Source: Candidatus Undinarchaeota archaeon (GTDB lineage Archaea; SpSt-1190; JASMDC01). Taken from it: 64,000 nucleotides of DNA. A model generated the notes under the pieces. It was not told the origin of the DNA. It worked only from the letters and a program-made list of their open reading frames with translations, and did not search any database. Positions 10,021 to 31,894 of the stretch are shown here, in pieces. Numbering within the stretch: the first letter of the stretch is position 1; the number at the start of each line of letters is the position of its first letter. The translations under genes were made by a program, and so were the position numbers. The stretch spans positions 96,001-160,000 of the forward strand of contig CAZFHY010000005.1 of NCBI GenBank assembly GCA_964519305.1, in the 5' to 3' direction.

Positions 10021-10035
10021 TAGGTAGTGATCACC

Positions 10036-11256: not shown

Positions 11257-11260
11257 AAGG

Positions 11261-13491: not shown

Positions 13492-13493
13492 CC

Positions 13494-15262: not shown

Positions 15263-15263
15263 G

Positions 15264-16631
15264 ATGGCCGAGGAGGAGAAGGTCACGAACATCAAGCCCG
15301 ATCTCACTGATGTCACTGACGTCACGTGCCCGTTCTGCGGCAACCTCTGCGACGACATCCATATCAAGAGGACGGGCGACGACGAGGCCGAGGTCCATCA
15401 CGCGTGCGGTGTTGGATACTACAAGTTCAAGAAGTTCATCACCAAGGGGGCACCTAGGAAGAACCTGCTCAGAAAGAAGAGCGGTGACAAGAAGGCCTCT
15501 GACGACACGTTCAAGGAGGCCAAGCTGGACGCGTGCATCGACAAGGCGGCCGAGCTGCTCATCGCCGCCAAGAAACCGGTGCTCTTCGGCTGGGCATCCA
15601 CATCGGTGGAGGCGATCCGGGAAGGTATCGCCCTTTCTGAGGAGGTCGGCGGTATTATCGACCAGACCACTTCGGTCTGTCATGGCCCCTCCACACTAGC
15701 TGTCCAGGACGTGGGCATCTCTTCGTGCACCCTCGGGACGGTCCTCAACCATGCGGACCTCATCATCTACTGGGGATGCAATCCCTCCGAGGCCCACCTG
15801 CGGCACATGAGTAGATATACAGTCTACCCCAGGGGTGCCTTCAGGGAGAAGGGACGCCAGGACCGGGAGGTCGTGGTCGTCGACGTCAGGGAGACCTCGT
15901 CCACGAGTGTCGCCACCCAGTTCATCAAGGTGGACCCGAACACGGACTACGAACTGGTCCACGCGCTCAGGCTCGCCATGAAGGGCGAGGAGCTACCGGA
16001 CGAGATACCTGGGACCGGTGTCACCAAGAAGCAGGTCATGAAGCTCGCCCAAAGGCTCAAGCGCTCCAAGTTCTGCGCGTTCTTCTTCGGTCTCGGGCTG
16101 ACCATGACACGCGGAAGGCACCGGAACATCGATGCCATCCTCTCTCTGGGTGCCGAGCTCAACAAGGACACGAAGGTCGTCATCCGGCCCATGAGGGGAC
16201 ACTACAACGTCGCTGGCGCTGCTGAAGTGTTCACCTGGCAGACGGGGTACCCGTACGCTGTGGACCTCACGAGGGGGTATGCCAGATACAATCCTGGCGA
16301 GACCTCGCTGGTCGACCTCTTGGTACGGGATGATGCTGACTGCCTGTTCATCGTCGCGTCCGATCCGGTCGCGCACTTACCGAAGGAGGCCGCACGACGG
16401 TTCGGCAATCTGCCTGTTATCGTCATCGATCCTCACGCTACCATCACTTCGAAGTTCGCCGACGTCTACTTCCCGTGCGCGGTCACGGGTGTCGAATCCG
16501 AGGGCACCGCCTATAGGATGGACGGGGTCCCGATTAAGCTGAAGAAGGTCATCGACAGTGACCTGCCATCTGACACGGAGATCGTCGCCAATATCCTTGA
16601 ACGTGTCAAGAAGAAGAGAGGGGGTAAGTAG
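15264..16631 (+). CDS. fwdB: Formylmethanofuran dehydrogenase subunit B (Cys-ligated Mo/W)
   Basis: CPFCGNLCDD, SVCHGP, WGCNP, MRGHYNV, GTAYRMDG. Confidence 0.94.
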   Translation: MAEEEKVTNIKPDLTDVTDVTCPFCGNLCDDIHIKRTGDDEAEVHHACGVGYYKFKKFITKGAPRKNLLRKKSGDKKASDDTFKEAKLDACIDKAAELLIAAKKPVLFGWASTSVEAIREGIALSEEVGGIIDQTTSVCHGPSTLAVQDVGISSCTLGTVLNHADLIIYWGCNPSEAHLRHMSRYTVYPRGAFREKGRQDREVVVVDVRETSSTSVATQFIKVDPNTDYELVHALRLAMKGEELPDEIPGTGVTKKQVMKLAQRLKRSKFCAFFFGLGLTMTRGRHRNIDAILSLGAELNKDTKVVIRPMRGHYNVAGAAEVFTWQTGYPYAVDLTRGYARYNPGETSLVDLLVRDDADCLFIVASDPVAHLPKEAARRFGNLPVIVIDPHATITSKFADVYFPCAVTGVESEGTAYRMDGVPIKLKKVIDSDLPSDTEIVANILERVKKKRGGK

Positions 16632-16632
16632 G

Positions 16633-18309
16633 ATGGGACTGATACTCAAGAACGGTATAGTCTTCGATCCCAAGAACGGGATCCGCGGCGAGAAGATGGA
16701 CCTATTCATCAAGGACGGGAAGATAGTCGCTGAGAAAGACCTCGGAAAGAAGTCCGATACTATCGACCTAGTAGGTAAGGTCGTGTTCCCGGGCGGCGTC
16801 GACATCCATGCTCATATCGCCGGCTCGAAGGTGAACAGCGGTCGGCTCTTCCGACCAGAGGACAGCCGGATGCGCACCGTCCCGAGAACGAACGTCACAC
16901 GGGCCGGGTCAGGCTTCTCCGTACCTACCACGTACCTTACCGGGTATACATACTCGGAGATGGGCTACACCACGGTCATCGAGCCCGCGGTCCCGCCGCT
17001 GAAGGCCAGGCACACTCACGAGGAGTTCCACGATATCCCCATGCTCGACAAGACCGGGCTCCTACTCCTGGGCAACAACCATCAGGTCATCGAGTACCTC
17101 AAGGCCGGTGACCTCGACCGGTGCAGGGAGTGGGTCGCTTGGATGCTCTTGGCCACAAAGTGCTATGGTATCAAGTGCGTGAACCCGGGTGGTACGGCCA
17201 GCTGGGCGTGGGGCAAGAACGTGGAAGGCCTCGACGATCCCTGCACGTACTTCGAGGTAACGCCGCGGGAGATCATCCGTGGGCTCGTGGACATCAACGA
17301 GAACCTCGGTCTCCCTCATGCGGTCCATCTGCACTGCAACAACCTCGGCGCACCCGGTAACTATACGACCGCTATCGAGACAATCGACGCCGTCAAGGAC
17401 CTCAAGAACAAGGAACGGTCCGTCCTGCACCTCACCCACCTGCAGTTCAACGGGTATGGTGGCGACTCCTGGAAGACGTTCGAGTCCAAGGGGGTCGAGC
17501 TCGCCGAGAAGATAGACAAGACCCCGAACATCACGGTGGACACGGGGAACGTCTGCTTCGAGCCCACGACGACCATGACGGCCGACGGGCCCTTCGAGTT
17601 CCATCTCCACCGGCTCAGCAAGCAGAAATGGGTCAACTTCGACGTGGAGCTAGAGGCGGGTACCGGGATCGTGCCCTACGAGTACAAGAAGAACGTCAGC
17701 GTGAACGCGGTCCAGTGGGCCGTCGGTCTCGAGATGGTCCTTGCGCTAAAGGACCTCACGAAGATACACCTGACCACGGACCATCCGAACGGTGGCCCCT
17801 TCACGTGCTATGCAGAGATGATCGCGTGGCTCATGTCCAAGAAGGCCAGGGCCGAGACGATAGCAACGCTCCACGACGCTGTGAAGAGCAGGGCTGCGAT
17901 CTCAGACTTGGACCGTGAACTTGACCTCTTCGATATCTGTCTGATCACGCGCGGAACCGCACAGACCCTCGGTCTCGCGAACAAGGGTCATCTTGGTATC
18001 GGTGCCGACGCGGACGTCGCCGTGTACGACATCGGTGTCGAGGAGAAGGACGGGGCCAAGATCGAGCGTGCTTTCAGGCATTGTGCCTACACCATCAAGG
18101 GCGGAGAACTCGCGGTCAAGGACGGGAAGGTCGTCAATTCCGTTACGGGAAAGACGCTCTGGATCGACACGAAGCCGAAGGTGGACGCCATCGAGAAGGA
18201 CCTGAGAAAGCGGTTCGAAGCATATTACTCCGTATCGCTCGATAACTACCCCGTCGATATGAGCTATCTGGGGGAGAGCGAGATGGTCATGAAGAGGTGT
18301 AAGAAATGA
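16633..18309 (+). CDS. fwdA: Formylmethanofuran dehydrogenase subunit A
   Basis: DIHAHIAG, KCVNPGG, HLHCNNLG, THLQF, TTDHPNGGPF. Confidence 0.95.
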   Translation: MGLILKNGIVFDPKNGIRGEKMDLFIKDGKIVAEKDLGKKSDTIDLVGKVVFPGGVDIHAHIAGSKVNSGRLFRPEDSRMRTVPRTNVTRAGSGFSVPTTYLTGYTYSEMGYTTVIEPAVPPLKARHTHEEFHDIPMLDKTGLLLLGNNHQVIEYLKAGDLDRCREWVAWMLLATKCYGIKCVNPGGTASWAWGKNVEGLDDPCTYFEVTPREIIRGLVDINENLGLPHAVHLHCNNLGAPGNYTTAIETIDAVKDLKNKERSVLHLTHLQFNGYGGDSWKTFESKGVELAEKIDKTPNITVDTGNVCFEPTTTMTADGPFEFHLHRLSKQKWVNFDVELEAGTGIVPYEYKKNVSVNAVQWAVGLEMVLALKDLTKIHLTTDHPNGGPFTCYAEMIAWLMSKKARAETIATLHDAVKSRAAISDLDRELDLFDICLITRGTAQTLGLANKGHLGIGADADVAVYDIGVEEKDGAKIERAFRHCAYTIKGGELAVKDGKVVNSVTGKTLWIDTKPKVDAIEKDLRKRFEAYYSVSLDNYPVDMSYLGESEMVMKRCKK

Positions 18310-19082
18310 AGATCATCCTGCGGTCCAAGAACAAGGTCGACAAAATCAATGTCGAGGTCGATGGGATCAACCACCAGCTCTTCGGGATGGCCCTTGCCCA
18401 GATCAAGAAGGTAACCGTCCACCAAGGGAACCAGCAATGCTCATTGGGTGACTTCTTCGATGTGAGCATCGAGGATGCGAAGGGTAAAGGCCGACTGATC
18501 GTGCTCGAAGGCGACGACCTGGGCAGGTTCAAGCGCATCGGCGAGGCCCTCGAAGAGGGTGAGGTCCAGGTGAACGGGGATTGCGGTATGTACTGCGGTT
18601 ACCTTATGTCGGGCGGTAGGATCGTTGTGGAGGGTAACTGCGACGCGTTCTGTGGCATGGACATGACCGGTGGCGAGCTCGTCGTCAAGGGCAATGCATC
18701 GGACTACCTGGGCGCGGCCTACCGCGGTGAGTCCGCGGGCATGAAGGGTGGCAAGATCACCGTGCACGGGAACGCAGGTGTCGAGGTGGGCAGCAGGCTC
18801 GCCGGCGGCATGATCGTCATCAAGGGTGACACTGACCTGTTCACTGGGATCCACATGAAGAAGGGGCTCATCGTCATCGAGGGCACGGCCGGTCTACGAG
18901 TCGGCGCCCAGATGACCGGCGGGACTATCGTTCTCTCTAAGGGAGAGCTTCTGCCCGGGTTCAAGGAAGGTGAACCTGTCAAGGATCCCGATATCGAGGG
19001 CGAGGGATTCAGCGGGGACTACAGAACGTTCGCCGGAGACCTCGTTGAGAACGGAAAGGGGACAGTCCTCCTCAAGGATTGA
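18306..19082 (+). CDS. fwdC: Formylmethanofuran dehydrogenase subunit C
   Basis: GxxMxxG beta-helix repeats, AYRG..GMKGG, C-terminal GDL..GKG. Confidence 0.92.
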   Translation: MKIILRSKNKVDKINVEVDGINHQLFGMALAQIKKVTVHQGNQQCSLGDFFDVSIEDAKGKGRLIVLEGDDLGRFKRIGEALEEGEVQVNGDCGMYCGYLMSGGRIVVEGNCDAFCGMDMTGGELVVKGNASDYLGAAYRGESAGMKGGKITVHGNAGVEVGSRLAGGMIVIKGDTDLFTGIHMKKGLIVIEGTAGLRVGAQMTGGTIVLSKGELLPGFKEGEPVKDPDIEGEGFSGDYRTFAGDLVENGKGTVLLKD

Positions 19083-19103: not shown

Positions 19104-20525
19104 GTGACCATGGGAACGAACGACGATATCCTAAAGGAGCTACTAGAGACGGAGCGGCTGAAGTTCTGTTTCCAGTGCGGTGTCTGCACCGCGAGCTGCC
19201 CGATGATGGAGCTGCTCCCTCATCACTATAACCCCCGGAGCCTTCTCCAAGGGCTTCCGTTCGATCCTGAGAAGGTCATGAACGGCAAGGCCATCTGGTT
19301 GTGCGCCTGGTGCTATCGATGTCACCAGCGATGCCCCCAGGGACTGAAGGTGCCCGAGCTCCTTCTGCAGATGAAGGATGCTGCGGCCGAGAGGGGGAAC
19401 CTTGAGGCGTTCAAGGAAGCCCTCGACATCATCAAGAACGAGATGCCCCTGCCCGCGATCTGCACGTACATCTGCTTCAATCCACTTCACGGCCACGTGG
19501 AAAAACCACAGGTCGTCGAAGCTCTCAAGGGTTTCATATCCGAGTATGAACAAATGATCAAAGGGGAAGAACCGCCCCCCATCACACATGACGAGAAGAT
19601 CGCCATCGTCGGTTCCGGTCCTGCAGGGCTCACGGCTGCCTGGGAGCTTGCCGGGAATGGGTATCCCGTCACTATCTTCGAGTGCCTGCCCGAGGCCGGG
19701 GGCATGCCGAGAAGGTGCATACCTGAGTTCAGGCTGCCCTCGAAGGCGCTCGACGCCGACATCCAGCGGATCGAGAACCGGGGTGTGGACATCAGGACTG
19801 GGACCAAATCACCTGAGATCGACGACCTCCTAGAGGAGGGCTATCAGGCGGTGTTCGTCGCCACGGGCCTCCATATGAGCAGAAGGATCGGTATCAAGGG
19901 CGAGGACCTGGAAGGGGTCTACGATGTCCTCGACTTCCTCAGCGGGACGAAAACGGGAACACGGTTCGAGCTCGGGGACAAGGTCGTGGTCATCGGAGGA
20001 GGCAATGTGGCCATGGACGGTGCCCGGGCCGCATTGCGGCTCGGTGCCAAGGAGGTCCATATCGTCTGCGGTGAGTCGCGGGAGGAGATGCCTGCGTTCG
20101 AGCCCGAGATCGAGGAGGCCGTTGAAGAGGGCGTTATCCTCCATCCGGGATGGATGCCCACGCGGATCATTGAGAATGAAGGACGATGTACGGGCGTGGA
20201 GAGCCTGAAGTGTCTGTCGGTGTTCGATCCCAAGGGATTATTCTGCCCGAAGGTCGAGGCCGGAACAGAGTCCGTCGTGGAGGGTGATTCCATTATCGTC
20301 GCCATCGGGATGGGATTGGATCCCGGGGTTCTCAGGGCGTTCAAGCTCGCGGGAAGGGGCACCATCATCGCGGACCCGTTCAGTATGGAGTCGAGCCAGC
20401 CCGGTGTGTTCGCCGGTGGGGACGCCGTGTCGGGACCCGCCTCAGCAATGGAGGCGATCATTGCCGGAAAGCGGGCCGCCACATCGATCGACATGTATCT
20501 CACGGGCAGAGCGGAGGGGAGCTGA
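19104..20525 (+). CDS. HdrC-like 2x[4Fe-4S] domain fused to a GltD/NfnB-like FAD/NAD(P) oxidoreductase
   Basis: CFQCGVCTASCP and IWLCAWCYRCHQRCP (HdrC-like); GSGPAG, IPEFRLP, GGGNVAMD, VFAGGD (GltD-like). Confidence 0.85.
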   Translation: MTMGTNDDILKELLETERLKFCFQCGVCTASCPMMELLPHHYNPRSLLQGLPFDPEKVMNGKAIWLCAWCYRCHQRCPQGLKVPELLLQMKDAAAERGNLEAFKEALDIIKNEMPLPAICTYICFNPLHGHVEKPQVVEALKGFISEYEQMIKGEEPPPITHDEKIAIVGSGPAGLTAAWELAGNGYPVTIFECLPEAGGMPRRCIPEFRLPSKALDADIQRIENRGVDIRTGTKSPEIDDLLEEGYQAVFVATGLHMSRRIGIKGEDLEGVYDVLDFLSGTKTGTRFELGDKVVVIGGGNVAMDGARAALRLGAKEVHIVCGESREEMPAFEPEIEEAVEEGVILHPGWMPTRIIENEGRCTGVESLKCLSVFDPKGLFCPKVEAGTESVVEGDSIIVAIGMGLDPGVLRAFKLAGRGTIIADPFSMESSQPGVFAGGDAVSGPASAMEAIIAGKRAATSIDMYLTGRAEGS

Positions 20526-20529
20526 TACC

Positions 20530-22971
20530 ATGGTGAAAGGAAAAGCTAGCAAGAAGGCATCAGAGTCCTCCAGTGATGACAGCGAGATACGTGTCGGTGT
20601 GTACGTTTGTCATTGCGGTCTGAACATCGCCGGATCGGTCGACTGCGTGGATGTCGCCAAGTTCGCGGCCACGCTACCGAACGTCGTCGTCGCGAAGGAC
20701 AACAAGTACTGCTGCTCGGACCCTGGGCAGGAGGAGATCAAGAAGGACATAAAGGAGCAGAGATTGAACAGGGTCGTTGTCGCATCCTGCACACCACGCC
20801 TCCATGAGCCCACCTTCCGGAATGCCTGCGAGGATGCAGGACTGAACAAGTACCTGTTCGAGATGGCCAACATCCGGGACCACTGCAGCTGGGTCCACCT
20901 CTATGAGAAGGAGAAGGGTACCCAGAAGGCAAAGGACCTGGTCCGGATGGCCGTGTCCAAGGTCTCCCTGCTCAAGCCCCAGGTGGAGCTCGAAGTGCCC
21001 GTGATAAGGAAGACCCTTGTCGTCGGCGGCGGAGTCGCCGGGCTCCAGGCCGCATTGGACCTCGGTAACGCGGGATACCAGGTATATCTCGTTGAGAAGG
21101 AACCGAGCATCGGGGGCAGAATGGCCCAGATCGATAAGACATTCCCTACTCTGGACTGCTCCATCTGCATCCTTGCACCGGTGATGTCCGACGTCGGTCG
21201 TCACCCGAACATCGAGCTAATGGCCAACAGCGAGGTCGTGAACGTCGCAGGGTACATCGGGAACTTCACGGTGACGGTCAAGAAGAAGCCGTGGTACGTC
21301 GTTGAGTGCAACAGCTGTGGCGACTGCGCCAAGGTCTGCCCGGTCCAGGTCCCCAACAAGTTCGACGCCAACTTCGCCCCACGCAAGGCCATCTACACGC
21401 CCTTCGCCCAGGCCGTCCCATCGTGCTACATCGTCGACATGGACCACTGCATCAGATGTCATGAGTGCGTCAAGGCGTGCAAGGCCTCGGGTGCAGGGGC
21501 CATCGACCTCAGGCAGGAGCCCGAGGAGGTCGAGATCGAGGTGGGCACAGTCATCATCGCCACCGGTGCGGACGTGTACGATCCCTCAGCGTTGAAAGCG
21601 TACGGGTACGGACGGTTCCCGAACGTCATCAGCGCTCTGGAGTTCGAGCGTATGATCAATGCCGGGGGACCTTCCGGCGGCCACCTTATCCGGCCCAGCG
21701 ACCGCGAGATCCCGAAGTCGGTAGCGTTCGTCCAGTGCGTAGGATCGCGCTCTGAGAAGTGCGGCCAGCCGTACTGCAGCAGCGTCTGTTGCATGAACAC
21801 GCTCAAGGACGCCCTGCTCATCAAGGAGCACTGGCCTGACACCAAGATCTACGTGTTCTACGTGGACATGCGTTGCTTCGGCAAGGGGTACGAGGACCTC
21901 TACCGAAGGGCGAAAGCTGCGGGCGTGGTGTTCATCCGCGGACTGCCCGCCGAGATCTTCGAGCGCAAGGGAGGTGACCTGCGTATGGTCGGGGAGAACA
22001 CCCTGCAGAAGGAGCTGTTCAACATCGAGTGCGAGATGGCTATCCTTTCCATTGGTCTGAAACCGGGAGAGGACGCCGATACGATCCAACGTCTCTTCAA
22101 CCTCTCTAGGACCGCGGACGGATTCTTCATGGAGGCGCACCCCCAGCTCAAGCCAGTGGACGCACCCACCGGGGGGATCTTCTTCGCCGGATGCGCCGAG
22201 TCGCCAAAGGCCATCAAGGACAGCGTGACCCAGGCCGGCGCGGCCGCGGCCCATGCGAACATCCTCATGGCAAGGGGGAAGGTGACCGTGGAGGCCATCA
22301 CGCCACAGTTGATCGAGGAGAAGTGCAGGGGCTGTGGCCTCTGCGCCAAGGTCTGCCCCTATAACGCCATCGCATTCGACAAGGAGACGAAGAAAATTTC
22401 AATCATCGAGGCCGCGTGTCATGGCTGCGGTACCTGTGGTGCGGAATGCCCCACGAACGCCCTTGTCATGCGCCACTTCACCGACGAGCAGATTTTCTCA
22501 CAGATCGACGCGGCCACCGCGGAGAACGCTGACAAGAAGATCGTCGCGTTCTGCTGCAACTGGTGCTCCTACGCAGGCGCGGACTTCGCTGGTGTGAGCC
22601 GCATGCAGTACCCGCCCAGCGTGCGCATCATACGGATGATGTGCTCGGGGAGGATGGCCACGAAGTTCATCGAGCGGGCCTTCGCACGAGGGGCCGCTAC
22701 GGTGCTCGTCTCGGGCTGTCACATCGGCGACTGCCACTACATAGACGCCAACCACTATGCCAAGAAACGTGTGGAGCGCTTCTGGAAGCGGATGGACAAG
22801 CTTGGCCTTGACAAGGACCGGTTGCACCTGGGATGGTTCTCTGCTGCCGAGGGAGAGCGGTTCTCCAACAAGATCAAGGAAATGGACGCCATCGTTGGGA
22901 AGGTGACGAAGGCTGAGCTGGACAAGACGAAGAAAGCCTTCGAGAAAGCCCTAGGGGGTGGTGACCGATGA
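20530..22971 (+). CDS. hdrA: Heterodisulfide reductase subunit A fused to MvhD
   Basis: VYVCHCGLNI, ASCTPRLHE, NIRDHCSWVH, TFPTLDCSIC, QCVGSR, YCSSVCC; C-terminal FCCNWCSYAGAD..MCSGR..GCHIGDCHY (MvhD). Confidence 0.93.
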   Translation: MVKGKASKKASESSSDDSEIRVGVYVCHCGLNIAGSVDCVDVAKFAATLPNVVVAKDNKYCCSDPGQEEIKKDIKEQRLNRVVVASCTPRLHEPTFRNACEDAGLNKYLFEMANIRDHCSWVHLYEKEKGTQKAKDLVRMAVSKVSLLKPQVELEVPVIRKTLVVGGGVAGLQAALDLGNAGYQVYLVEKEPSIGGRMAQIDKTFPTLDCSICILAPVMSDVGRHPNIELMANSEVVNVAGYIGNFTVTVKKKPWYVVECNSCGDCAKVCPVQVPNKFDANFAPRKAIYTPFAQAVPSCYIVDMDHCIRCHECVKACKASGAGAIDLRQEPEEVEIEVGTVIIATGADVYDPSALKAYGYGRFPNVISALEFERMINAGGPSGGHLIRPSDREIPKSVAFVQCVGSRSEKCGQPYCSSVCCMNTLKDALLIKEHWPDTKIYVFYVDMRCFGKGYEDLYRRAKAAGVVFIRGLPAEIFERKGGDLRMVGENTLQKELFNIECEMAILSIGLKPGEDADTIQRLFNLSRTADGFFMEAHPQLKPVDAPTGGIFFAGCAESPKAIKDSVTQAGAAAAHANILMARGKVTVEAITPQLIEEKCRGCGLCAKVCPYNAIAFDKETKKISIIEAACHGCGTCGAECPTNALVMRHFTDEQIFSQIDAATAENADKKIVAFCCNWCSYAGADFAGVSRMQYPPSVRIIRMMCSGRMATKFIERAFARGAATVLVSGCHIGDCHYIDANHYAKKRVERFWKRMDKLGLDKDRLHLGWFSAAEGERFSNKIKEMDAIVGKVTKAELDKTKKAFEKALGGGDR

Positions 22972-24698
22972 GGTGCATGTTGAACACGGGCAGAACGGTC
23001 GGCCAGGGCATGGCCTTAGAGGTCGGCAAGACATCGGCGGAGTACTACGATGAAGTGGCCGTGGCGTTCATGAACGGGGACGACATGGATGACCTGGGGA
23101 TCGCGGAGAACGCGCCCGTCAAGGCCTCTTCGGGCTCAGGTTCTGTCGTTGTCCGGGCAAGAAAGGGTCAGCTAGATCGCGGCAACGTGTTCATCCCCGT
23201 GGGCCCTTGGGCGAACGCCCTCATCGGTGGTGATACCGGGGGTACTGGTATGCCACGGTTCAAGGGCATGTGGATCGAACTATCCAAGACCGAGGACGGG
23301 CCAACATCACTCAACGACCTTCTCCCGAGCAAGGATGAGATCGTCCAAGCTCCCGACCAGTCCCCTCCCCCCACATCTTCCGATGAGGACGAGCGATCGA
23401 TCGTCACGGACGTGGTCTGTCCATTCTGCGGTTGTCTGTGCGACGACGTGGAGCTCGTGATGACAAAGGGGAAGATCACTGACATCGAGATCGGGTGCGA
23501 CATCACCAGGAGCAGGTTCGTCAACTGGGACCGTGACCGGGCGAAGGCCGCGGTGAGGAAGAAGGGAAAGCTCGTGGAAGTACCCCTCAAGGAGGCTTTG
23601 GACAAGGCCGCCGATATCCTGAAGGGAGCGGACTTCCCATTGATCTACGGACTCAGTTCCACCGAGGTCGACGCTCAGCGGCGTGCCATCGAGCTCGCCG
23701 AGCTGCTCGGAGCGACCATCGACAACACATCCTCCGTATGCCATGGACCGACCGTGGTGGCCGCCCAGGACGTCGGCGTGTCAAAATGCACGCTCGGTGA
23801 GGTACGGAACCGGGCGGACCTGGTGATCTACTGGGGATGCAACCCCGCCGAAGCCCATATCAGGCACATCACACGCTATTCGGGGACACCCGAGGGCATG
23901 TACTCTCCTGATGGAAGGGATGATCGCACAATCGTCCACGTGGACGTAAGGGAGACAAAGACCTCCCAGGTGGATCCCCGATGGAAGTACACCTACCAGC
24001 TGGCGGACCAGTTCATCAAGGTCCGGCAGGGCCAGGACTATGAACTCCTGTCCGCGCTTCGGGCCACGCTCAAAGGGCACGATGTGGGTGACGTTGCAGG
24101 CGTCCCGGCCAGCGCCATCAAGGAGCTGGCCGACCGGATGAAGAGCTGTAAGTTCGGTATCATCTTCTTCGGTCTGGGGCTTACCATGTCCGATGGACGT
24201 CACATGAACGTCAATGCGGCCTTGCGCCTTGTCAGGGACCTGAACGACCATACGAAGTTCACCATCCTCCCCATGCGAGGCCATTACAACGTGACGGGGA
24301 TCAACGCGGTCATGACGTGGACCACAGGCTATCCCTTCGCCGTCAACCTATCACGAGGCTACCCGGTGTACAATCCGGGAGAGTTCTCGGCCGTTGACAT
24401 GCTGGCCCGTAAGGAGTGCGATGCCGCGTTAATCATCGCATCTGACCCCGCCGCTAACTTCCCACGGGAAGCGGTCGAACACCTGTCGAAGATACCCACG
24501 ATCGTCATCGATCCGAAGCTCAACCTCACCTCGCCCATCGCCGATGTCCTGATCCCTTCAGCGATCGCCGGTATCGAATGCGAGGGGACCGCCTACAGAA
24601 TGGACGGCATCCCCATCAGGCTCCGAAAGGTGGTCGAGTCCGACCAGCTGCCTGATAAGGTCGTCCTTGAAAAGCTCATCGAGAGGGTGAGACCATGA
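22968..24698 (+). CDS. fwdB: Formylmethanofuran dehydrogenase subunit D-B fusion (second copy)
   Basis: N-terminal LNTGRT..QG, GPWAN, GTGMP.FKG; Pro/Ser linker; CPFCGCLCDD, SVCHGP, MRGHYNV. Confidence 0.92.
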   Translation: MRCMLNTGRTVGQGMALEVGKTSAEYYDEVAVAFMNGDDMDDLGIAENAPVKASSGSGSVVVRARKGQLDRGNVFIPVGPWANALIGGDTGGTGMPRFKGMWIELSKTEDGPTSLNDLLPSKDEIVQAPDQSPPPTSSDEDERSIVTDVVCPFCGCLCDDVELVMTKGKITDIEIGCDITRSRFVNWDRDRAKAAVRKKGKLVEVPLKEALDKAADILKGADFPLIYGLSSTEVDAQRRAIELAELLGATIDNTSSVCHGPTVVAAQDVGVSKCTLGEVRNRADLVIYWGCNPAEAHIRHITRYSGTPEGMYSPDGRDDRTIVHVDVRETKTSQVDPRWKYTYQLADQFIKVRQGQDYELLSALRATLKGHDVGDVAGVPASAIKELADRMKSCKFGIIFFGLGLTMSDGRHMNVNAALRLVRDLNDHTKFTILPMRGHYNVTGINAVMTWTTGYPFAVNLSRGYPVYNPGEFSAVDMLARKECDAALIIASDPAANFPREAVEHLSKIPTIVIDPKLNLTSPIADVLIPSAIAGIECEGTAYRMDGIPIRLRKVVESDQLPDKVVLEKLIERVRP

Positions 24699-26314
24699 GC
24701 CTGATCATAGAGAACGGCACCGTCTACGATCCCGCGAACGGGATCGACGGGGAACGGATGGACATCTTCATCAAGGACGGAAAGATCGTCGAGGAAGCGA
24801 AGGGAAAGGTCATCGATGCCACGGGCCTCATCGTCCTCCCGGGCGGTATGGACATACATACCCACATCGCTGGAGGGAAGGTGAACCTTGGCCGGCTGTT
24901 CAGACCGGAGGACCATCGCAAGGATCCTGTGCCGAGGACCGCGGTCTCGCGTGCGGGGACGGGATACTCGGTCCCGACGACCTACGTGACAGGGTACCGT
25001 TACGCGACCATGGGATACACCACGGTGATGGAACCGGCGATCACCCCGCTCTCGGCCCGTCACACGCACGAGGAGCTGGTCGACACACCCATCCTGGACA
25101 AGGCGGGCTACACCCTCCTTGGTAACAACCACTTCGTCATGCACTACATCAAGGAGGGGGACCGGGAGAATCTCAAGAACACCGTTGCCTGGTTCCTGGG
25201 TGCGTCGAAGGGGTACGCCGTGAAACTTGTGAATCCCGGTGGTGTGGAGAACTGGAAGTGGGGCCGTGACGTGGAGAGCCTCGACGATCCAGTGGACAAC
25301 TACGAGGTCACACCACGGGAGGTGCTCGCAGGTCTCGCCAGAGCGAACGAGGAGCTGGGCCTCCCTCATCCCATCCACGTGCACGCCAACAATCTGGGCA
25401 TGCCCGGTAACTATGAGACCACCATCAAGACCATCGACGCCGTCAAGGAGCGTCTCCATCTCACTCACCTGCAGTTCCAGGCGTACACCGGCGAGGGATG
25501 GAAGGACTTCGGTTCCGGGATGGCCGAAATCGCGAAGCTGATCAACAAGCGCGACAACGTGACCTGCGACATGGGACAGGTGATTTTCGACGACACTACC
25601 ACCATGACCGCTGATGGTCCGGCACAGCACCATCTGTACAAGCTGACGAAGAACAAGTGGTTCAACGCGGACGTCGAGATGGAGACGGGGGCCGGCATAG
25701 TCCCGTACAGGTACTTGGAGAGGAATCCGGTCAACGCAGTGCAGTGGGCCATCGGGCTCGAGGTCGCGCTCATGATCACGGATCCCTGGAAGGTAAGCCT
25801 CACGACCGACCACCCCAACGGCGGTCCTTTCTACCACTACCCGAAAATCATCTCTTGGTTGATGAGCAAGAAGGAGCGAGAGACCACCCTTGGTACGATC
25901 CACAAGGCCGCGGCCGCCAGGGCGGCACTGGCGAGCCTTGACAGGGAGTACTCGCTCTATGAGATCGCAGTGATAACGCGAGCGGCCACTGCCAAGGCTC
26001 TCGGGCTAACAGGGAAGGGGCATCTGGGTGTCGGGGCCGACGCGGACCTGGCCATCTACCGTTTCTCAGAGGACGATATCGAGGGCTCGTTCAAACGCAC
26101 GGTCTACACGATCAAGGACGGAAAGATCGTCGTGAAGAACGGGGCCGTGGTCGACACGCCCGAGGGCAGGACCTATTGGATAGATGCTGGTGGTGAGCTC
26201 ACCGACGAGGACCGTCAGGTGTTCACGAAGTACTACACGATGACACCGGATAACTACCCCGTGCAGGCCGAGTATCTGCCACGAGGGGAAGCTGTTCGAA
26301 CCGGAGGGAGCTAA
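24695..26314 (+). CDS. fwdA: Formylmethanofuran dehydrogenase subunit A (second copy)
   Basis: DIHTHIAG, KLVNPGG, HVHANNLG, TTDHPNGGPF; clear paralog of 16633-18309. Confidence 0.94.
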   Translation: MSLIIENGTVYDPANGIDGERMDIFIKDGKIVEEAKGKVIDATGLIVLPGGMDIHTHIAGGKVNLGRLFRPEDHRKDPVPRTAVSRAGTGYSVPTTYVTGYRYATMGYTTVMEPAITPLSARHTHEELVDTPILDKAGYTLLGNNHFVMHYIKEGDRENLKNTVAWFLGASKGYAVKLVNPGGVENWKWGRDVESLDDPVDNYEVTPREVLAGLARANEELGLPHPIHVHANNLGMPGNYETTIKTIDAVKERLHLTHLQFQAYTGEGWKDFGSGMAEIAKLINKRDNVTCDMGQVIFDDTTTMTADGPAQHHLYKLTKNKWFNADVEMETGAGIVPYRYLERNPVNAVQWAIGLEVALMITDPWKVSLTTDHPNGGPFYHYPKIISWLMSKKERETTLGTIHKAAAARAALASLDREYSLYEIAVITRAATAKALGLTGKGHLGVGADADLAIYRFSEDDIEGSFKRTVYTIKDGKIVVKNGAVVDTPEGRTYWIDAGGELTDEDRQVFTKYYTMTPDNYPVQAEYLPRGEAVRTGGS

Positions 26315-26315
26315 G

Positions 26316-27125
26316 ATGGTCGTTCTCAAACCCAAGACCGAGTTCACGGTACCTGTCGAGGCAGAATGTATATCGCCCGATGTCTTCGCTGCACGGCCTG
26401 CAAAGGAGCTGGGAAAGCTCGAAGTGCTGTGGGGGAACAAGCTCAAGCCGCTGAGTGAGCTGTTCGAGATCGATCCATCAGGCAAGCTGGACGAGATCGT
26501 CATCGAGGGCGATGTCAGCGCCGTCAAGCACATCGGAGCACGGATGACCACGGGCCTGATAACCATCCACGGGAACGTCGGGATGCACCTCGGCAGAGAG
26601 ATGGACGGCGGCAGGATCATCGTCCACGGGGATGTCGGGGACTGGCTCGGCGCCGAGATGAAGGACGGCACCATCCAGGTCACTGGAAACGCTGGCCACC
26701 TAGCCGGAGCCGGCTACCGGGGCTCGAAGTCCGGTATGGCGGGCGGCACCATCATCATCGAAGGGAATGCTGGCGATGAGGTCGGGGAGCTGATGTGCGG
26801 CGGTACGATCGCCGTCGCTGGCGATCTGGGGACCTTCGCGGGGACGCTCATGACCGGTGGGACCATCGTGTGCCTCGGTGCTCTTGGCGGGCGGGCTGGG
26901 GGTGCGATGGAAGGTGGTACCATCATCGCCCTCACAACACCGCGGCTGCTCCCCACGTTCATCACACAGGGAGCCGATCGCCCTGCCCACGTAGGGGAGC
27001 TCCTGCAGCAGCTTAAGGGCAACGGATTCCCGCTCGCAGAGGAGCATATCGGAGCGCTCTTTGACAGGTACGAAGGTGATATTGCAGGTAAGGGAAAGGG
27101 CGAGGTCCTCGTCAGGATAGGATGA
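26316..27125 (+). CDS. fwdC: Formylmethanofuran dehydrogenase subunit C (second copy)
   Basis: VEAECISPD, GxxMxxG repeats, YRG..GMAGG, GD..GKGE. Confidence 0.92.
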   Translation: MVVLKPKTEFTVPVEAECISPDVFAARPAKELGKLEVLWGNKLKPLSELFEIDPSGKLDEIVIEGDVSAVKHIGARMTTGLITIHGNVGMHLGREMDGGRIIVHGDVGDWLGAEMKDGTIQVTGNAGHLAGAGYRGSKSGMAGGTIIIEGNAGDEVGELMCGGTIAVAGDLGTFAGTLMTGGTIVCLGALGGRAGGAMEGGTIIALTTPRLLPTFITQGADRPAHVGELLQQLKGNGFPLAEEHIGALFDRYEGDIAGKGKGEVLVRIG

Positions 27126-27146: not shown

Positions 27147-28076
27147 ATGGGACTCAACGAAAGCAGCCTCGGGCTCGTCGAGCAATTGAAGGAAAGGTGC
27201 CCTACGCAGACCCTCGACTGTGGCGCCACGGTGATCGACTGCGGTGTGTCATGGAAAGGGAGCGTTCAGGCAGGGCTATTGTTCGCCAAGATCACCTTAG
27301 GAGGGCTGGCCGAGGTCCAGCTGTCAACCAGAAACGAGAAGGACCTGACCTACCCCGTGGTCGAGGTCCGCACCGACCACCCGACGACGGCCACCATCGC
27401 CTCGCAGATGGCAGGATGGCAGGTTGTCGCCGGGAAGTTCTTCGGCATGGGATCAGGTCCGGCCAGGGCGCTGGCCCTTAAACCCAAGGACGTTTACGAG
27501 GCCATCGACCACCAGCGCGAGGACGATGATGTTGCGGTACTATGCCTTGAGTCGAGTTCGCTCCCGAGCGATGATATTGCGAGGACCGTTGCCAAGGAGT
27601 GTGGTATCAAACCGCGGGACGTTCACCTTCTCGTGGCGCGGACGGACAGTATTACCTCATCGGTCCAGCTGGCAAGTCGGACGCTCGAGATGGGTACGTT
27701 CCGGATGCTCGACGTGCTCAAGTTCGACGTGCGGAAGGTCGTCTCGGCCTTCGGTGTTGCTCCGTTGGCACCCGTGTACAAGGGACTTGCTGCCATGGGG
27801 GCCACAAACGATGCCCTCATCTACGGGGGCGACAACCTGTACTTCATCGACGGCTTCAGTCAAGAGCTAACCGACAAGGTCGTCTCCGAGGGGTCCAAGA
27901 GCTACGGCAAGCGGTTCGAGCAGTTGTTCAAGGAGGCCGGGAAGGACTTCTATAAGATGGACCACGATATATTCGCCCCTGCCAAGGTAACGGTCAACGA
28001 CCTTGCTGCAGGGAGGGTGTATTGCGCCGGACACATCAACCTTGACGTGCTCCGAAAGGTGTTCGCTCAGTCTTGA
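27147..28076 (+). CDS. mch: Methenyl-H4MPT cyclohydrolase
   Basis: IDCGV, SQMAGW, GSGPARAL, TNDALIYGG, DFYKMD..FAPA. Confidence 0.93.
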   Translation: MGLNESSLGLVEQLKERCPTQTLDCGATVIDCGVSWKGSVQAGLLFAKITLGGLAEVQLSTRNEKDLTYPVVEVRTDHPTTATIASQMAGWQVVAGKFFGMGSGPARALALKPKDVYEAIDHQREDDDVAVLCLESSSLPSDDIARTVAKECGIKPRDVHLLVARTDSITSSVQLASRTLEMGTFRMLDVLKFDVRKVVSAFGVAPLAPVYKGLAAMGATNDALIYGGDNLYFIDGFSQELTDKVVSEGSKSYGKRFEQLFKEAGKDFYKMDHDIFAPAKVTVNDLAAGRVYCAGHINLDVLRKVFAQS

Positions 28077-28492: not shown

Positions 28493-30664
28493 TTACTTCT
28501 TCTTCGAGGTCCTCTTCTTCTTGGGCGCTGCCTTCTTTGCTACCGCTTTCTTCTTGGTGGATTTCTTGGGGGCGGCCTTCTTCTTGGGCGCCGCTTTCTT
28601 CTTGGTTGCCGCCTTCTTCTTGGTGGGTTTCTTTGCGGGAGCCTTCTTCTTCGCAGCAGGAGCTTTCTCCTTGACAGGAGGTGCCGGTAAGGGCTCGGTC
28701 TCCTTCTCGCGCGCCTTCTCAGGTTCGGCTTCTGGTGCCTCCTTCTCTTCTGATGGGGGCGCTTCTGCTTCTTCCTCGGCCGATTCTCCCATGGTCTTAA
28801 TCTTGACCTTGGGTTCGAACGCCCCGGGGGGAGCGACGACGACGACCTCTGACCCGGGCTCCTCCTCCGCACGACGTTCAGGTCCGCTGGAGAGCTGGGT
28901 GTAGGTGATTATGAGGATAAGGGCAAGAACACCAAGGAGCAATGCCGAAGAGTCCCCCTTGTCGGTCGGGGTCTCGGGCTCGGCGGAAGGTGCAGGTGTC
29001 TGTGTAGGGAGCTCGATGTCGTCAGAATCCGTCGTGGTCGGTGTGCTTGTAGGCGTATCGGAAGTGGGCTCGGGCGTAGCCTCGATGGGCTCGACCGGCG
29101 TTGGTGTGGGCGGCGGGGGCGTGGGTGTCGGACAGGCGTCAAAACATGCCGACTCATCAGGGCACCACGTCTGGCCTTTACCGCAGCAATGGCCATCGGC
29201 ACAAATACCTGGGCACTCGGCATGCGCCAAGCACTCATCTCCGGTCTCCAGTGTACCGGCTATGTAGCATGTCCCGCCAACGCACTTGAGCCCTTCAACA
29301 CACTCCTCGTCCACGGTGCATGCCTCGCTCCGTTGAACAGTGGCCGGCTGGACGCATGTACCCACACATAGACCGCTTGCACACTGACGCTCGCAGGTGC
29401 AGGAGGTCCCGTCAGGTTGTGCGGGGAGCACGCATGCTTTAGCCTCTGCGCACCAGAACCGATCGCCTGGACAACATGTGCCCTCCACGCATACAAGGTG
29501 GTCACACTGCTCATTGCACACGCAGGAGTCGCCCTCACCGAGGATGTGCAGACCCTCGACACATTGTTCATTACAGAGCACACGACCCGGTTCGCATGTG
29601 TAGAGCTCATCGAAGATCGTAGCGTTCCCGTACGATATGCTCATGAGAGCGCTATCGATACCTAACTCGCACCGCGTCCCAGTCTCAGGACCACAGTCCC
29701 ACGAACCCTTCTCACGCATCTGGTCCGCATGCCCGAGGAACTCGGGCTTGAACTCACCGGCCTTGAGGTAAGCCTGGATGAGCACGGCCTGGTTCTGGCC
29801 GAGCCCGCACTTCCAGCCGGTGTCGGGGCCACAGTCCCGCGATCCGGTTGCGATAAGCTCGTCGATCCAGGTCAGGAGGGTTTCGTTGTGCAGATGTTCG
29901 ACCACGTGAACATAGGCATAAGTGAGCCACGCGGCCGAGACGGCATCGTTGCACCGCCAGCCTGTGTTCGGGCCGCACTCGGACGCGCCCTTGCGGAACA
30001 TCCCCTCTAGAGCCTCGAAATAGCTAGCCTCGCCGGTGAGCTCGTAAAGACGAGCGTAGCCCAGCATGTACGGTCCCTGTGAGTAGCCGAACTTGCATTG
30101 CCAGCCCGCCCTGGGGCCGCACTCGAGCGAGCCCTCATCACCGAGCTCCCGGGCCATCGCGAGGTCCTGCTCACGGCCAAGTACCTTGTAGGCCGTTGTG
30201 TAGGACAAGATCGTGAAACCCTGCATCTTACCATCACGACATCGAGCACCGAACTTACCACCGCAGTCCGTGGAGCCGGAATCGGCCAGACTCTCTAGAC
30301 CCTCTTTGAACTCGGTGAGGTTGGTGGCCTCGTAGGCCGCCGCGTACCCCAGCATCATCCATGTCTGAGGCCAGGCAGTACCACAGTTCCAGCCAGTGTG
30401 CTGTCCGCAGTCCGACGTTCCCATCGCGTGCAGTTCCTGCATGGCATTGAGATATGCCTCTTCACCCGTTTCCCTGTAGCGAAGGGCGTTGGCGAATATC
30501 AAGCTACCCATCGATTCACCGGTCTGACACTTCCATGTGGTCTTGGGTCCGCACTCTCGTGCACCCTCCAACAGGAAGTCGTCGGATGTAACCTCAATGG
30601 CGGTTGTCAGTGCGAGCACGCACACCAAGGCTATGACAGTAAACAGCCGGGAATCCGGGACCAT
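28493..30664 (-). CDS. Membrane-anchored surface protein: 7 x 46-48-aa Cys-loop repeats, Cys-rich region, Pro/Thr linker, TM helix, Lys/Ala-rich tail
   Basis: Signal peptide, GxxxCGxxxGWxC repeats, ALLLGVLALILIITY helix, KKAAPKKK tail; TTTATAA about 25 bp upstream. Confidence 0.8.
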   Translation of the reverse strand: MVPDSRLFTVIALVCVLALTTAIEVTSDDFLLEGARECGPKTTWKCQTGESMGSLIFANALRYRETGEEAYLNAMQELHAMGTSDCGQHTGWNCGTAWPQTWMMLGYAAAYEATNLTEFKEGLESLADSGSTDCGGKFGARCRDGKMQGFTILSYTTAYKVLGREQDLAMARELGDEGSLECGPRAGWQCKFGYSQGPYMLGYARLYELTGEASYFEALEGMFRKGASECGPNTGWRCNDAVSAAWLTYAYVHVVEHLHNETLLTWIDELIATGSRDCGPDTGWKCGLGQNQAVLIQAYLKAGEFKPEFLGHADQMREKGSWDCGPETGTRCELGIDSALMSISYGNATIFDELYTCEPGRVLCNEQCVEGLHILGEGDSCVCNEQCDHLVCVEGTCCPGDRFWCAEAKACVLPAQPDGTSCTCERQCASGLCVGTCVQPATVQRSEACTVDEECVEGLKCVGGTCYIAGTLETGDECLAHAECPGICADGHCCGKGQTWCPDESACFDACPTPTPPPPTPTPVEPIEATPEPTSDTPTSTPTTTDSDDIELPTQTPAPSAEPETPTDKGDSSALLLGVLALILIITYTQLSSGPERRAEEEPGSEVVVVAPPGAFEPKVKIKTMGESAEEEAEAPPSEEKEAPEAEPEKAREKETEPLPAPPVKEKAPAAKKKAPAKKPTKKKAATKKKAAPKKKAAPKKSTKKKAVAKKAAPKKKRTSKKK

Positions 30665-30703: not shown

Positions 30704-31321
30704 TCAGAGCACCCGTTCGATCTCCTCACGAGAGTACCCGAACTCCTTCATGGTGCTTCTTATCTCGTCGTCGGTGTGTCCTTTAGCACGACATTCTTCC
30801 ACGTACTCATGTGCCTCATCCATGGATTCGTCATCCTCCCCTGCATGGCGGCTGCGCCAGCGCAGTGCCACGACCGCTAGCATCAGGCCCGTGATGATGA
30901 GGACGATCAATGTTCTATAGGGTGCGAGCACGGCGACGACGCACGTCCCCCAGGGTAACATAAAGGGAAGAGAGGAGCACAGATCCCATGCCTTGCCCGT
31001 GTCCCGCCCGGCCACGACTGCGGCCGTGTCGATAAGGCACCAATCACGCCATGATGTGTTGTTTATGAGCCGGCAGGTCCCCATGGCGGTCTGGACGTTG
31101 GTCCTCGCGAGCACGGGAGCCACTTCAGCCAAACACTCGTCCAACCACACATCGTCCGACAAGGTAAGACACATGTCCACCCTCCCCTCTGGTGGAGCCC
31201 TTATACGATAGCAATGCTCCTGTTCCAGTCCGGGAGTTAGAAGGGTACAGTCGTCCACGCCCTGTGCTGTGGCTAGAACGACGAGCATGAAGATGGTGAT
31301 GAGCGTGCGAACACAGGACAT
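30704..31321 (-). CDS. Membrane protein with Cys-containing helical repeats and a short C-terminal helical module
   Basis: Signal peptide, C..L..W.D.CL..A repeats, TM helix, EYVEECRAKGHTDDEIR..GY; TATAAA 25 bp before ATG 31321. Confidence 0.65.
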   Translation of the reverse strand: MSCVRTLITIFMLVVLATAQGVDDCTLLTPGLEQEHCYRIRAPPEGRVDMCLTLSDDVWLDECLAEVAPVLARTNVQTAMGTCRLINNTSWRDWCLIDTAAVVAGRDTGKAWDLCSSLPFMLPWGTCVVAVLAPYRTLIVLIITGLMLAVVALRWRSRHAGEDDESMDEAHEYVEECRAKGHTDDEIRSTMKEFGYSREEIERVL

Positions 31322-31362
31322 CGGCCACCCATGAAGGTGACTCACTTTATATCGTTGTCGAT

Positions 31363-31894
<532 letters not shown>

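Follow-up and report, generated by a model that had tools for sequence, protein, structure and literature searches.

Five consecutive genes at positions 19104 to 27125 of a 64,000-nucleotide stretch of archaeal DNA (referred to here as the window; G000:C5:96001-160000, i.e., part of contig C5 of genome G000, which comprises 3.63 Mb in 42 contigs with a completeness of 99.83%) encode a chimera of HdrC and an NfnB/GltD-type flavoprotein (GltDl), a fusion of HdrA and MvhD (HdrA2), and the formylmethanofuran dehydrogenase (Fwd) subunits FwdDB, FwdA, and FwdC. We propose, with a probability of roughly one-half, that these genes encode a single HdrA-centered system, bifurcating or confurcating, that has three ports; NAD(P)(H) would replace the methanogen heterodisulfide (CoM-S-S-CoB), and Fwd would serve as the low-potential partner. 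The main addition of this analysis is that the core of the cassette, GltDl and HdrA2, is a common modular two-gene unit that is joined with at least two different low-potential enzymes.

Non-methanogenic archaea with a tetrahydromethanopterin (H4MPT)-dependent Wood-Ljungdahl pathway pose an open problem, in that the conversions of CO2 to formylmethanofuran and of acyl-CoA to 2-oxoacids need electrons near -500 mV. To our knowledge, the only characterized HdrA mechanism pays for low-potential electrons by reducing the methanogen heterodisulfide. The two-gene unit represents a concrete and testable answer that is small enough to express and assay.

Gene content of the cassette

The original prediction for this DNA described five tightly coupled genes between fwdC and mch. 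All five were found on the + strand at the positions that it gave, as follows.

19104-27125, + strand: five-gene cassette, all coordinates as in the original prediction
19104-20525, + strand: GltDl, chimeric Fe-S flavoprotein (473 aa from GTG 19104, or 471 aa from ATG 19110)
19146-19418, + strand: HdrC-like N-terminal domain of GltDl, with two CxxCxxCxxxCP motifs (C22/25/28/32 and C67/70/73/77)
19581-20513, + strand: FAD- and NAD(P)H-binding flavoprotein part of GltDl (GSGPAG, residues 170-175, and GGGxxA, residues 298-303, both invariant)
20530-22971, + strand: HdrA-MvhD fusion (HdrA2), 813 aa
20530-22515, + strand: HdrA core, with N-terminal, FAD, inserted-ferredoxin, and C-terminal-ferredoxin domains
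22531-22899, + strand: MvhD domain at the HdrA C-terminus (PF02662, 159.5 bits, residues 671-789)
22968-24698, + strand: FwdD-FwdB fusion, pterin subunit (TIGR03129, 559 bits; cut-off, 327.8)
24695-26314, + strand: FwdA, amidohydrolase subunit (TIGR03121, 797.9 bits; cut-off, 392.75)
26316-27125, + strand: FwdC (TIGR03122, 258 bits; cut-off, 130.65)

The spacing between these genes is, in 5'-to-3' order, 4, -4, -4, and 1 nt, and the cassette lies 21 nt from the upstream fwdC and 21 nt from the downstream mch. HdrB/CCG, hydrogenase, Fdh, and polyferredoxin domains were not detected in any of the five proteins by Pfam and NCBIfam. The claim that HdrB, MvhAG, Fdh, and FwdF are missing therefore stands for the cassette proteins themselves, but the larger cluster includes an upstream 152-aa Fe-S protein (14383-14841), outside the cassette, which by its sequence is a possible FwdG-like wire.

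The HdrA-MvhD fusion exceeded the cut-off of the HdrA2 model NF040770 (1207.7 bits; cut-off, 1100). Residues 19 to 662 of HdrA2 aligned to residues 3 to 649 of 5odc_A (E value, 4e-246) without large gaps, and the ferredoxin domain is uninterrupted, with no insert in its alignment to 5odc_A across residues 225 to 325. Residues K426 and E373, which correspond to K409 and E356 of 5odc_A, do not vary in any of the 23 aligned sequences, and neither do the HdrA2 Cys motifs, including those of MvhD. K409 and E356 are named as stabilizers of the bifurcating FAD (PMC12054007). The MvhD domain also matched PDB MvhD chains (E value, 5e-43), and its C675/676/679/705/730/735 are invariant.

The fwdDB gene, the first 4 nt of which are shared with the end of hdrA, encodes a protein that aligned to 5t5i_B (E value, 9e-139) with retention of the N-terminal CxxCxxxC motif and of the Cys of SVCHGP, the latter being Cys118, a metal ligand (figure legend, PMC12054007). 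Its FwdD part scored 106.6 bits against NF042908, below the cut-off of 175 for that "exception" model, and was matched by PDB FwdD chains with E values of 1e-20 to 3e-23. A separate Fwd set lies immediately upstream, and the two sets in the window are 36 to 56% identical to one another. Elsewhere in the genome, a third FwdD-FwdB and a third FwdA-FwdC (C3:131941-133610 and C1:156768-159244) are 38 to 54% identical to the window sets.

GltDl is a chimera of HdrC and an NfnB/GltD-type flavoprotein

The first gene of the cassette encodes a genuine chimera: approximately the first 105 residues are HdrC-like by both sequence and fold, and the remainder is NfnB/GltD-like. The fusion claimed in the original prediction is thus real, as judged from the HdrC model, the HdrC chains in the PDB, the genome's own HdrC, and the fold of the isolated domain. 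The HdrC model TIGR03290 matched GltDl with 65.7 bits over residues 20 to 105 (model positions 2 to 87 of 144; the cut-off of 160 for a whole HdrC was not reached). PDB HdrC chains matched the N-terminal domain with E values of 6e-17 to 9e-12, the HdrC similarity covering residues 15 to 135, and the best blastp match of this domain was the genome's own HdrC (E value, 1.8e-14). None of the eight motif Cys varies among the aligned sequences (24 of 24 and 23 of 23), and the domain is predicted from these motifs to carry two [4Fe-4S] clusters. The C-terminal part of HdrC, which leads on to HdrB in HdrABC, is missing.

For the remainder of the protein, Pfam identified Pyr_redox_2 (107.6 bits), together with Fer4_8/Fer4_17 matches, while no NCBIfam equivalog exceeded its cut-off (best, NF009410, 312.6 versus 516 bits; TIGR01316, 244.5 versus 471.75). 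The AlphaFold2 model of whole GltDl had a mean predicted local distance difference test score (pLDDT) of 86.6, and its closest folds were NfnABC, NfnI-L, Xfn, NfnB, GltD, and DPD (template modeling [TM] scores, 0.65 to 0.70). When residues 3 to 140 were modeled alone (pLDDT, 79.6), ranks 1 to 7 of the Foldseek matches were HdrC chains (5odc_C; E value, 2.2e-4; TM score, 0.57), SdhB/FrdB chains came next, and Nfn-type chains appeared only at ranks 29 to 32 (NfnI-L from rank 29). The HdrC and GltD Fe-S domains are both of the helical-ferredoxin kind.

An ordinary GltD or NfnB was considered and rejected as an identity for GltDl. Canonical NfnB, NfnI-L, and GltD chains aligned to it only from residues 66 to 103 onward, the Pfam GltD/DPD-type Fe-S domain Fer4_20 scored below its cut-off (22.1 bits; cut-off, 25.8), and the isolated domain matched HdrC first. 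No GltB, NfnA/Bfu, or SudB partner lies beside GltDl, whose neighbors are FwdC and HdrA2. A second GltD-like gene is located on the - strand at G000:C5:86433-87656, approximately 8.3 kb before the start of the window; it is 34% identical to GltDl over residues 73 to 469 only and therefore lacks the HdrC-like N-terminus. In a scan of contigs with the GltDl alignment, which contains generic patterns, the matches listed were mostly ordinary GltD-like genes.

Regarding the start of the gene, GAGGGGTG precedes ATG 19110, a relative with 89% identity is 471 aa long, and the 473-aa form is absent from sequence records. ATG 19110, giving 471 aa, is the likely true start.

The nucleotide used by GltDl may be read from the motif after the second Rossmann strand (residues 320 to 326; approximately 20061 to 20081), which is CGE in G000 and the same-genus genome G001, YRR in most relatives, and CLE or CME in a few. 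YRR is typical of NADPH-using relatives, and an acidic residue at that position suggests NADH according to the Rossmann rule. Judging by CGE in place of YRR, the GltDl of this genome probably prefers NADH. The motif also differs between the two Fwd-linked lineages described below (CGE in G000 and G001; YRR in L140, which is G056-like), from which we infer that the module, if working as proposed, would have switched between NADH and NADPH.

Predicted docking of GltDl on HdrA2

A contact between the fusion protein and HdrA, which the original prediction proposed to check by multimer modeling, was predicted. Complex prediction was performed with HdrA2 residues 147 to 662 and full-length GltDl, each with a 23-row alignment, residues 1 to 146 and the MvhD domain of HdrA2 being excluded. 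Three runs gave scores of 0.75, 0.77, and 0.76, compared with 0.00 for the best of three controls. Of 80 solved complexes, 58 reach the score mark applied, as do 2 of 110 mismatched pairs; these counts are only rough for user-supplied alignments. The three runs had at least 96% of contacts in common, and the partner pLDDT was at least 82.

On the GltDl side, the predicted interface consists of residues 18 to 46 and 76 to 80, i.e., both Cys-motif regions. On the HdrA2 side, it consists of residues 357, 403 to 414, 445 to 446, and 471 to 497, all in the FAD domain, and surrounds the motif C403-X12-C416-X3-C420-C421, the equivalent of C386/C399/C403/C404 of 5odc_A. None of the named HdrA2 contact residues lies in the inserted (approximately 253 to 331) or C-terminal (approximately 584 to 662) ferredoxin domain. 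The HdrC-like domain of GltDl is thus predicted, in these models, to sit on the FAD domain of HdrA2. Residue-level contacts of the solved HdrA-HdrC complexes were not found in the literature text that was searched.

Distribution and phylogeny of the GltDl-HdrA2 pair

The full cassette, GltDl-HdrA2-FwdDB(-A-C), was present in 4 of the 401 archaeal genomes searched (G000, G001, G056, and G061). Gene order is the same in G001 (88 to 93% identity) and in G056 and G061, which belong to an unrelated class (GltDl, 49%; HdrA, 75 to 78%; FwdDB, 63 to 67% identity). Three of 80 metagenome loci (L138 to L140) also carry it. Because the order recurs in a congener, in a second class, and on metagenome contigs, it is more than a chance arrangement.

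The partners of HdrA-MvhD were then tabulated in three samples. Among the 30 best HdrA-MvhD loci from the 401 archaeal genomes, 4 had GltDl, 7 had hdrC/hdrB, and none had both. The second sample was drawn from the class that holds L008 (labeled Bathyarchaeia), in which 54 of 151 genomes had a strong HdrA-MvhD match; in its 30 best loci, GltDl was found in 12, hdrC/hdrB in 7, neither within 1.5 kb in 11, and both in none. All 12 GltDl-linked HdrA in this sample were at least 63% identical to HdrA2, and 3 of the 7 hdrC-hdrB loci had Fwd upstream. The third sample comprised the 80 metagenome loci, whose HdrA are 67 to 88% identical to HdrA2; 6 were too short, leaving 74 decidable. GltDl adjoined hdrA in 62 of these (56 upstream on the same strand, 5 divergent, and 1 downstream), mostly with its stop overlapping the hdrA start.

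What follows the pair differs. In 62 loci with at least 900 nt of downstream sequence, the next genes encode a 2-oxoacid:ferredoxin oxidoreductase (OFOR; POR_N, TPP_enzyme_C, and POR subunits, with a delta-type ferredoxin open reading frame [ORF] in front in L142) in 39 loci, Fwd in 3, and other proteins in 20. Genes upstream of GltDl vary among seven loci (five OFOR-type and two Fwd-type), the nearest being on the opposite strand in five. The co-occurrence that the original prediction proposed to survey is borne out in part: GltDl-hdrA-mvhD without hdrB is widespread, but Fwd lies downstream in only 3 of 62 metagenome loci. A dedicated Fwd isoenzyme, as had been suggested, holds for two lineages only; in most relatives, the pair precedes OFOR.

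An HdrA tree was constructed with FastTree (support values are local Shimodaira-Hasegawa-like only) from 95 loci (L104, L108 to L137, every third of L138 to L217 [27 of 80], and L218 to L254), of which six were excluded because the HdrA match was shorter than 550 aa or contained an X or a stop, so that 89 rows remained. Every one of the 31 GltDl-adjacent rows fell within one 40-row clade (support, 100), in which no hdrB-adjacent row (17 in the tree) was placed. The five rows with both Fwd and GltDl formed a subclade (support, 100) nested among the OFOR-linked rows. From the survey and the single HdrA clade, we conclude that the GltDl-HdrA partnership arose once. By the same sequence comparisons, the Fwd link is a later and rarer recombination of modules, common to two lineages by descent or transfer. 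The expectation that a pyridine-nucleotide flavoprotein takes the place of HdrB agrees with these data, in that HdrA-MvhD is flanked by either hdrC-hdrB or GltDl, never both, in the loci examined, and the GltDl-linked HdrA form a separate clade. In other archaea, loci L118, L120, and L238 to L240 carry FwdA-FwdC-HdrA(MvhD)-HdrC-HdrB in one run, a heterodisulfide-type counterpart of the cassette.

Other Hdr, Mcr, and hydrogenase genes of the genome

Matches to the HdrB model TIGR03288 were present at three sites in the genome (on contigs C21, C4, and C31) and absent from C5. The sole full-length hdrC (161.8 bits, above its cut-off) adjoins hdrB (338.2 bits, just under the cut-off of 345.15) on C21, and the two run straight into another hdrA-mvhD that is 36% identical to HdrA2. 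By this gene arrangement, the C21 hdrCB appears to have its own HdrA rather than to serve the HdrA2 of the cassette, and the possibility that an hdrBC elsewhere is the real partner of HdrA2 was accordingly not borne out. A search for McrA in G000, G001, and G056 gave no match; a methanogen-type heterodisulfide cycle is therefore not expected, in line with the CoM independence that had been predicted.

A second, NADH-type Hdr cluster is located at C13:69200-82300 (locus L105, 3202 to 16335). It encodes HdrA, a fusion of an HdrA N-terminal part with a NuoE-like [2Fe-2S] domain, a NuoF-like flavin mononucleotide (FMN) protein, a NuoG-like/ferredoxin protein, and MvhD, along with two Fe-S proteins, an FNR-like protein, and the small and large subunits of an Mvh-type [NiFe] hydrogenase.

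Proposed mechanism and alternative explanations

In the system that we propose, port 1 would be the usual HdrC place on HdrA2, to which GltDl would bind by way of its HdrC-like di-cluster domain, as in the docking models. The FAD of GltDl would connect this branch with NAD(P)+/NAD(P)H, a position that in methanogens belongs to HdrBC and the heterodisulfide. At port 2, the ferredoxin domains of HdrA2 would exchange low-potential electrons with FwdDB, FwdA, and FwdC, either by direct contact or via ferredoxin, the coupled reaction being CO2 + methanofuran (MFR) <-> formylmethanofuran; OFOR would occupy this port in relatives. Port 3, i.e., the fused MvhD domain or the HdrA2 flavin, would be the entry for a mid-potential couple encoded outside the cassette, the most plausible being H2 by way of the Mvh-type [NiFe] hydrogenase on C13. 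The net reaction would be 2 D(red) + NAD(P)+ + CO2 + MFR <-> 2 D(ox) + NAD(P)H + formyl-MFR. Gene content, domain identities, conservation, and the mutual exclusion with hdrCB are observations, the contact of GltDl with HdrA2 is a prediction, and the nucleotide, the branch assignment, the coupling to Fwd, the third partner, and the direction are all points that we infer.

The low-potential port is supported by the downstream partners in relatives, Fwd or OFOR, both of which work at ferredoxin potentials. Given potentials of -320 mV for NAD, -414 mV for H2, and about -530 mV for formyl-MFR, H2 as the third partner fits either direction. Coenzyme F420 (-360 mV; PMC5861303) could take that role only when the system confurcates, with F420 as the acceptor. 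The potential of the heterodisulfide has been revised (-138 to -281 mV; PMC12054007), and NAD(P) is thus a less exotic replacement than at first sight.

Several points weigh against this system. The docking result may do no more than echo the solved HdrA-HdrC complexes, the N-terminal domain of GltDl being HdrC-like, and it was obtained with a shortened HdrA2 (residues 1 to 146 and the MvhD domain omitted). The branch assignment depends on the C403-type cluster belonging to the HdrC-ward branch, as expected from 5ODC. At standard potentials, the H2-driven reaction is close to equilibrium, and the C13 hydrogenase is accompanied by its own MvhD, HdrA, and NuoEF-like genes. Within 19104-27125 there is no FwdF/FwdG polyferredoxin to wire HdrA to FwdB, and neither the cassette nor the region upstream of GltDl in the seven inspected loci encodes a third redox partner. 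An adjoining GltDl is missing in 12 of the 74 decidable metagenome loci; the HdrL form, with the GltD module inside the HdrA ferredoxin domain, accounts for 17 of 80 genome loci. A lookup of RNA runs returned none that contain the stretch. For type III HdrA, NADH has been proposed as a mid-potential donor, not as a substitute for the heterodisulfide (PMC12054007).

This last role would invert the proposed flow: NAD(P)H would be the bifurcation donor via GltDl, with one electron going up to Fwd and the other down via the MvhD port to a high-potential acceptor, possibly another enzyme or a disulfide carrier that HdrBC-like proteins reduce. It is the role in print for HdrL (PMC2702500) and type III HdrA (PMC12054007) and that of NADH in MetFV-HdrABC-MvhD (PMC5861303, PMC7325909), and the genome has, in addition to hdrCB, two other HdrB/HdrC-like loci. 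Fe-S chains run both ways, and a dock at the HdrC site does not set the direction. We nevertheless consider this donor role unlikely: the module has no conserved neighbor that would be a high-potential acceptor enzyme, hdrCB never lies beside a GltDl-type HdrA in the loci examined, the C21 hdrCB comes with its own hdrA-mvhD, and no methanogenic heterodisulfide is expected without Mcr. Similarly improbable in our judgment is that GltDl-HdrA(MvhD) acts as a free-standing ferredoxin:NAD(P) module, either Nfn-like or as a confurcating unit feeding a hydrogenase or F420, with a regulatory link to Fwd and no physical Fwd complex. The overlap of 4 nt between the hdrA2 stop and the fwdDB start, the gene order conserved across two classes, and the fully supported (100) subclade of Fwd-linked HdrA all speak for a closer tie, and Fwd-Hdr supercomplexes are the rule where studied (PMC13518236, PMC12054007). 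What keeps the module idea in play is that the pair precedes OFOR delta-alpha-beta-gamma in 39 of 62 loci, Fwd in 3, and neither in 20, that OFOR has its own ferredoxin-like delta subunit, that the cassette is without FwdF/G polyferredoxin, and that HdrA bears a ferredoxin site of its own (PMC5861303).

A simpler scheme would dispense with bifurcation altogether, HdrA2 and GltDl being a plain wire and the cassette an NAD(P)+-reducing formylmethanofuran dehydrogenase that runs in the oxidative direction. The genes show only two substrates, and the oxidation of formyl-MFR by NAD(P)+ is strongly downhill at the potentials given above; however, K426, E373, all Fe-S motifs, and an intact MvhD are kept in 23 of 23 relatives, which would be needless for a wire, and approximately 200 mV would be wasted in an organism with several energy-saving Hdr systems. 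We therefore regard the wire as very improbable and retain the three-port system with NAD(P)(H) in the place of the heterodisulfide.

A broader extension of that system is tentative and in our view rather doubtful, namely, that GltDl plus HdrA-MvhD is a widespread heterodisulfide-free archaeal engine that produces or uses electrons at the ferredoxin level, the "high" branch being NAD(P), and that plugs directly into enzymes of CO2 fixation, namely, OFOR in Bathyarchaea-like lineages and Fwd in this genome. If true, the pair would correspond, in the [NiFe]/HdrA world, to the bifurcating hydrogenases of bacteria and to Nfn, and it would explain how Mcr-less archaea with a Wood-Ljungdahl pathway drive -500 mV steps without CoM-S-S-CoB. 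If it works as proposed, it would be a new type of branch for HdrA-based bifurcation, and models of redox balance in abundant sediment archaea would change.

Genomic setting

The cassette is embedded in a Wood-Ljungdahl gene run of approximately 23 kb on one strand (4967-28076). The other members of the run are as follows.

4967-14357, + strand: carbon monoxide dehydrogenase/acetyl-CoA synthase genes (CdhA, CdhC, CooC-like, CdhD, CdhE), then Mtd and Ftr (Pfam Prismane, CdhC, ACS_CODH_B_C, CdhD [two matches], MTD, FTR)
14383-14841, + strand: small Fe-S protein, 152 aa (PF04060 and two [4Fe-4S] motifs), preceding the first Fwd set
14852-15262, + strand: FwdD of the first set
15225-16631, + strand: FwdB of the first set
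16558-18309, + strand: FwdA of the first set
18306-19082, + strand: FwdC of the first set
27147-28076, + strand: Mch, methenyl-H4MPT cyclohydrolase (TIGR03120, 349.7 bits; cut-off, 228.8), final gene of the same-strand run, given for context only

The run amounts to a nearly complete archaeal Wood-Ljungdahl pathway, Mer not being seen among its genes. The position of mch after fwdC recurs in G001 and L139. Two ORFs on the - strand directly after mch (28493-30664, 723 aa; 30704-31372, 222 aa) matched no Pfam family at an E value of 1e-5 or less.

At 3.6 Mb, G000 is larger than all 15 genomes of the same class in the collection (0.6 to 1.2 Mb), and 90%-identity cluster members carry the source names "Methanopyri archaeon" and "Candidatus Undinarchaeales archaeon." The genome may have an unstable placement or may represent a large-genome lineage amid reduced ones.

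Comparison with known systems

Among the systems most similar to the cassette are the methanogen complexes MvhADG-HdrABC and the Fdh-Hdr-Fmd and Hdr-Vhu-Fwd supercomplexes (5ODC, 7BKB; PMC13518236), with which the cassette shares a full-domain HdrA, an MvhD module, and Fwd in the same operon. Structures of Hdr-Fwd supercomplexes have been solved (PMC13518236, PMC12054007). They also have a di-cluster HdrC-type domain docked on HdrA, an arrangement that in the cassette is only predicted. Unlike these complexes, the cassette lacks HdrB, CCG clusters, and the C-terminal arm of HdrC, and carries an NfnB/GltD-type FAD/NAD(P)H module instead; it also lacks hydrogenase, Fdh, and polyferredoxin genes, and its host lacks Mcr. 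HdrA2B2C2 of Methanosarcina acetivorans (type Ia) resembles it in having an HdrA2-type protein with a fused MvhD (PMC5861303, PMC12054007). The partner in the cassette, however, is GltDl rather than HdrB2C2, and the GltDl-linked HdrA clade is apart from the hdrB-linked HdrA-MvhD.

A GltD/NfnB-type flavoprotein joined to HdrA is known from HdrL of Desulfobacterium autotrophicum, from type III HdrA, and from HdrA-NfnB of ANME-1 and Bathyarchaeota (PMC2702500, PMC12054007, PMC9012536). The flavoprotein parts of HdrL-type proteins are homologous to GltDl (32 to 44% identity), and all 14 of the fused HdrL-type loci that were checked are single open frames (716 to 1526 aa). In contrast, GltDl is encoded by a separate gene (4-nt gap) and has an HdrC-type Fe-S domain, and HdrA2 carries no insert. 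The HdrL inserts keep the canonical GltD Fe-S domain, whose match to the GltDl N-terminus has an E value of at least 0.002, versus 1.8e-14 for HdrC. A Rosetta-stone reading of the HdrL fusions as fused GltDl-HdrA was rejected on these grounds, the Fe-S part being of the canonical GltD type and unlike the GltDl N-terminus. By sequence, HdrL-type fusions back an association of GltD with HdrA in general, not the proposed docking site. In L183, L191, L199, and L212, an HdrL-type fused HdrA-GltD, a second HdrA, MvhD, and an HdrC-like gene lie directly upstream of a GltDl-clade HdrA-MvhD; both GltD-HdrA architectures can therefore stand side by side.

NfnAB/NfnI and NfnABC (4YLF, 5JCA, 9BOV, 9N5U) are the best sequence and fold matches to GltDl from approximately residue 100 to 470, with shared FAD and NAD(P)H sites and two [4Fe-4S] clusters, but no NfnA or Bfu adjoins the cassette, and the N-terminal domain of GltDl is not of the Nfn/DPD type. 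HytA-E/FdhA and HydABC (PMC5861303) would be alike in the proposed chemistry, in which a mid-potential donor reduces NAD(P)+ together with a low-potential CO2-reducing site; their proteins are unrelated (NuoF/FMN based, [FeFe]), and the likeness is one of functional analogy only. In MetFV-HdrABC-MvhD and the NuoEF-type HdrA cluster on C13, a pyridine nucleotide is coupled to the HdrA flavin, as proposed here. These systems keep HdrBC or use NuoEF-like or MetF nucleotide modules, and an HdrC-GltD chimera occurs in none of them.

In the open-access literature searched, supplements excluded, neither a free-standing HdrC-GltD protein that partners HdrA-MvhD nor its link to Fwd or OFOR was described; such neighbors might be listed in Table S3 of PMC12054007, which covers hdrA gene clusters, or in the supplement to PMC9012536. 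The original prediction ranked the cassette as the best candidate for a new system in the window. This ranking needs to be qualified, in that an NAD(P)H-linked HdrA is in print as HdrL and type III HdrA (PMC2702500, PMC12054007). We conclude that an NAD(P)H-linked HdrA is an already established idea, and that the HdrC-GltD architecture found here is distinct from the forms in which it has appeared.

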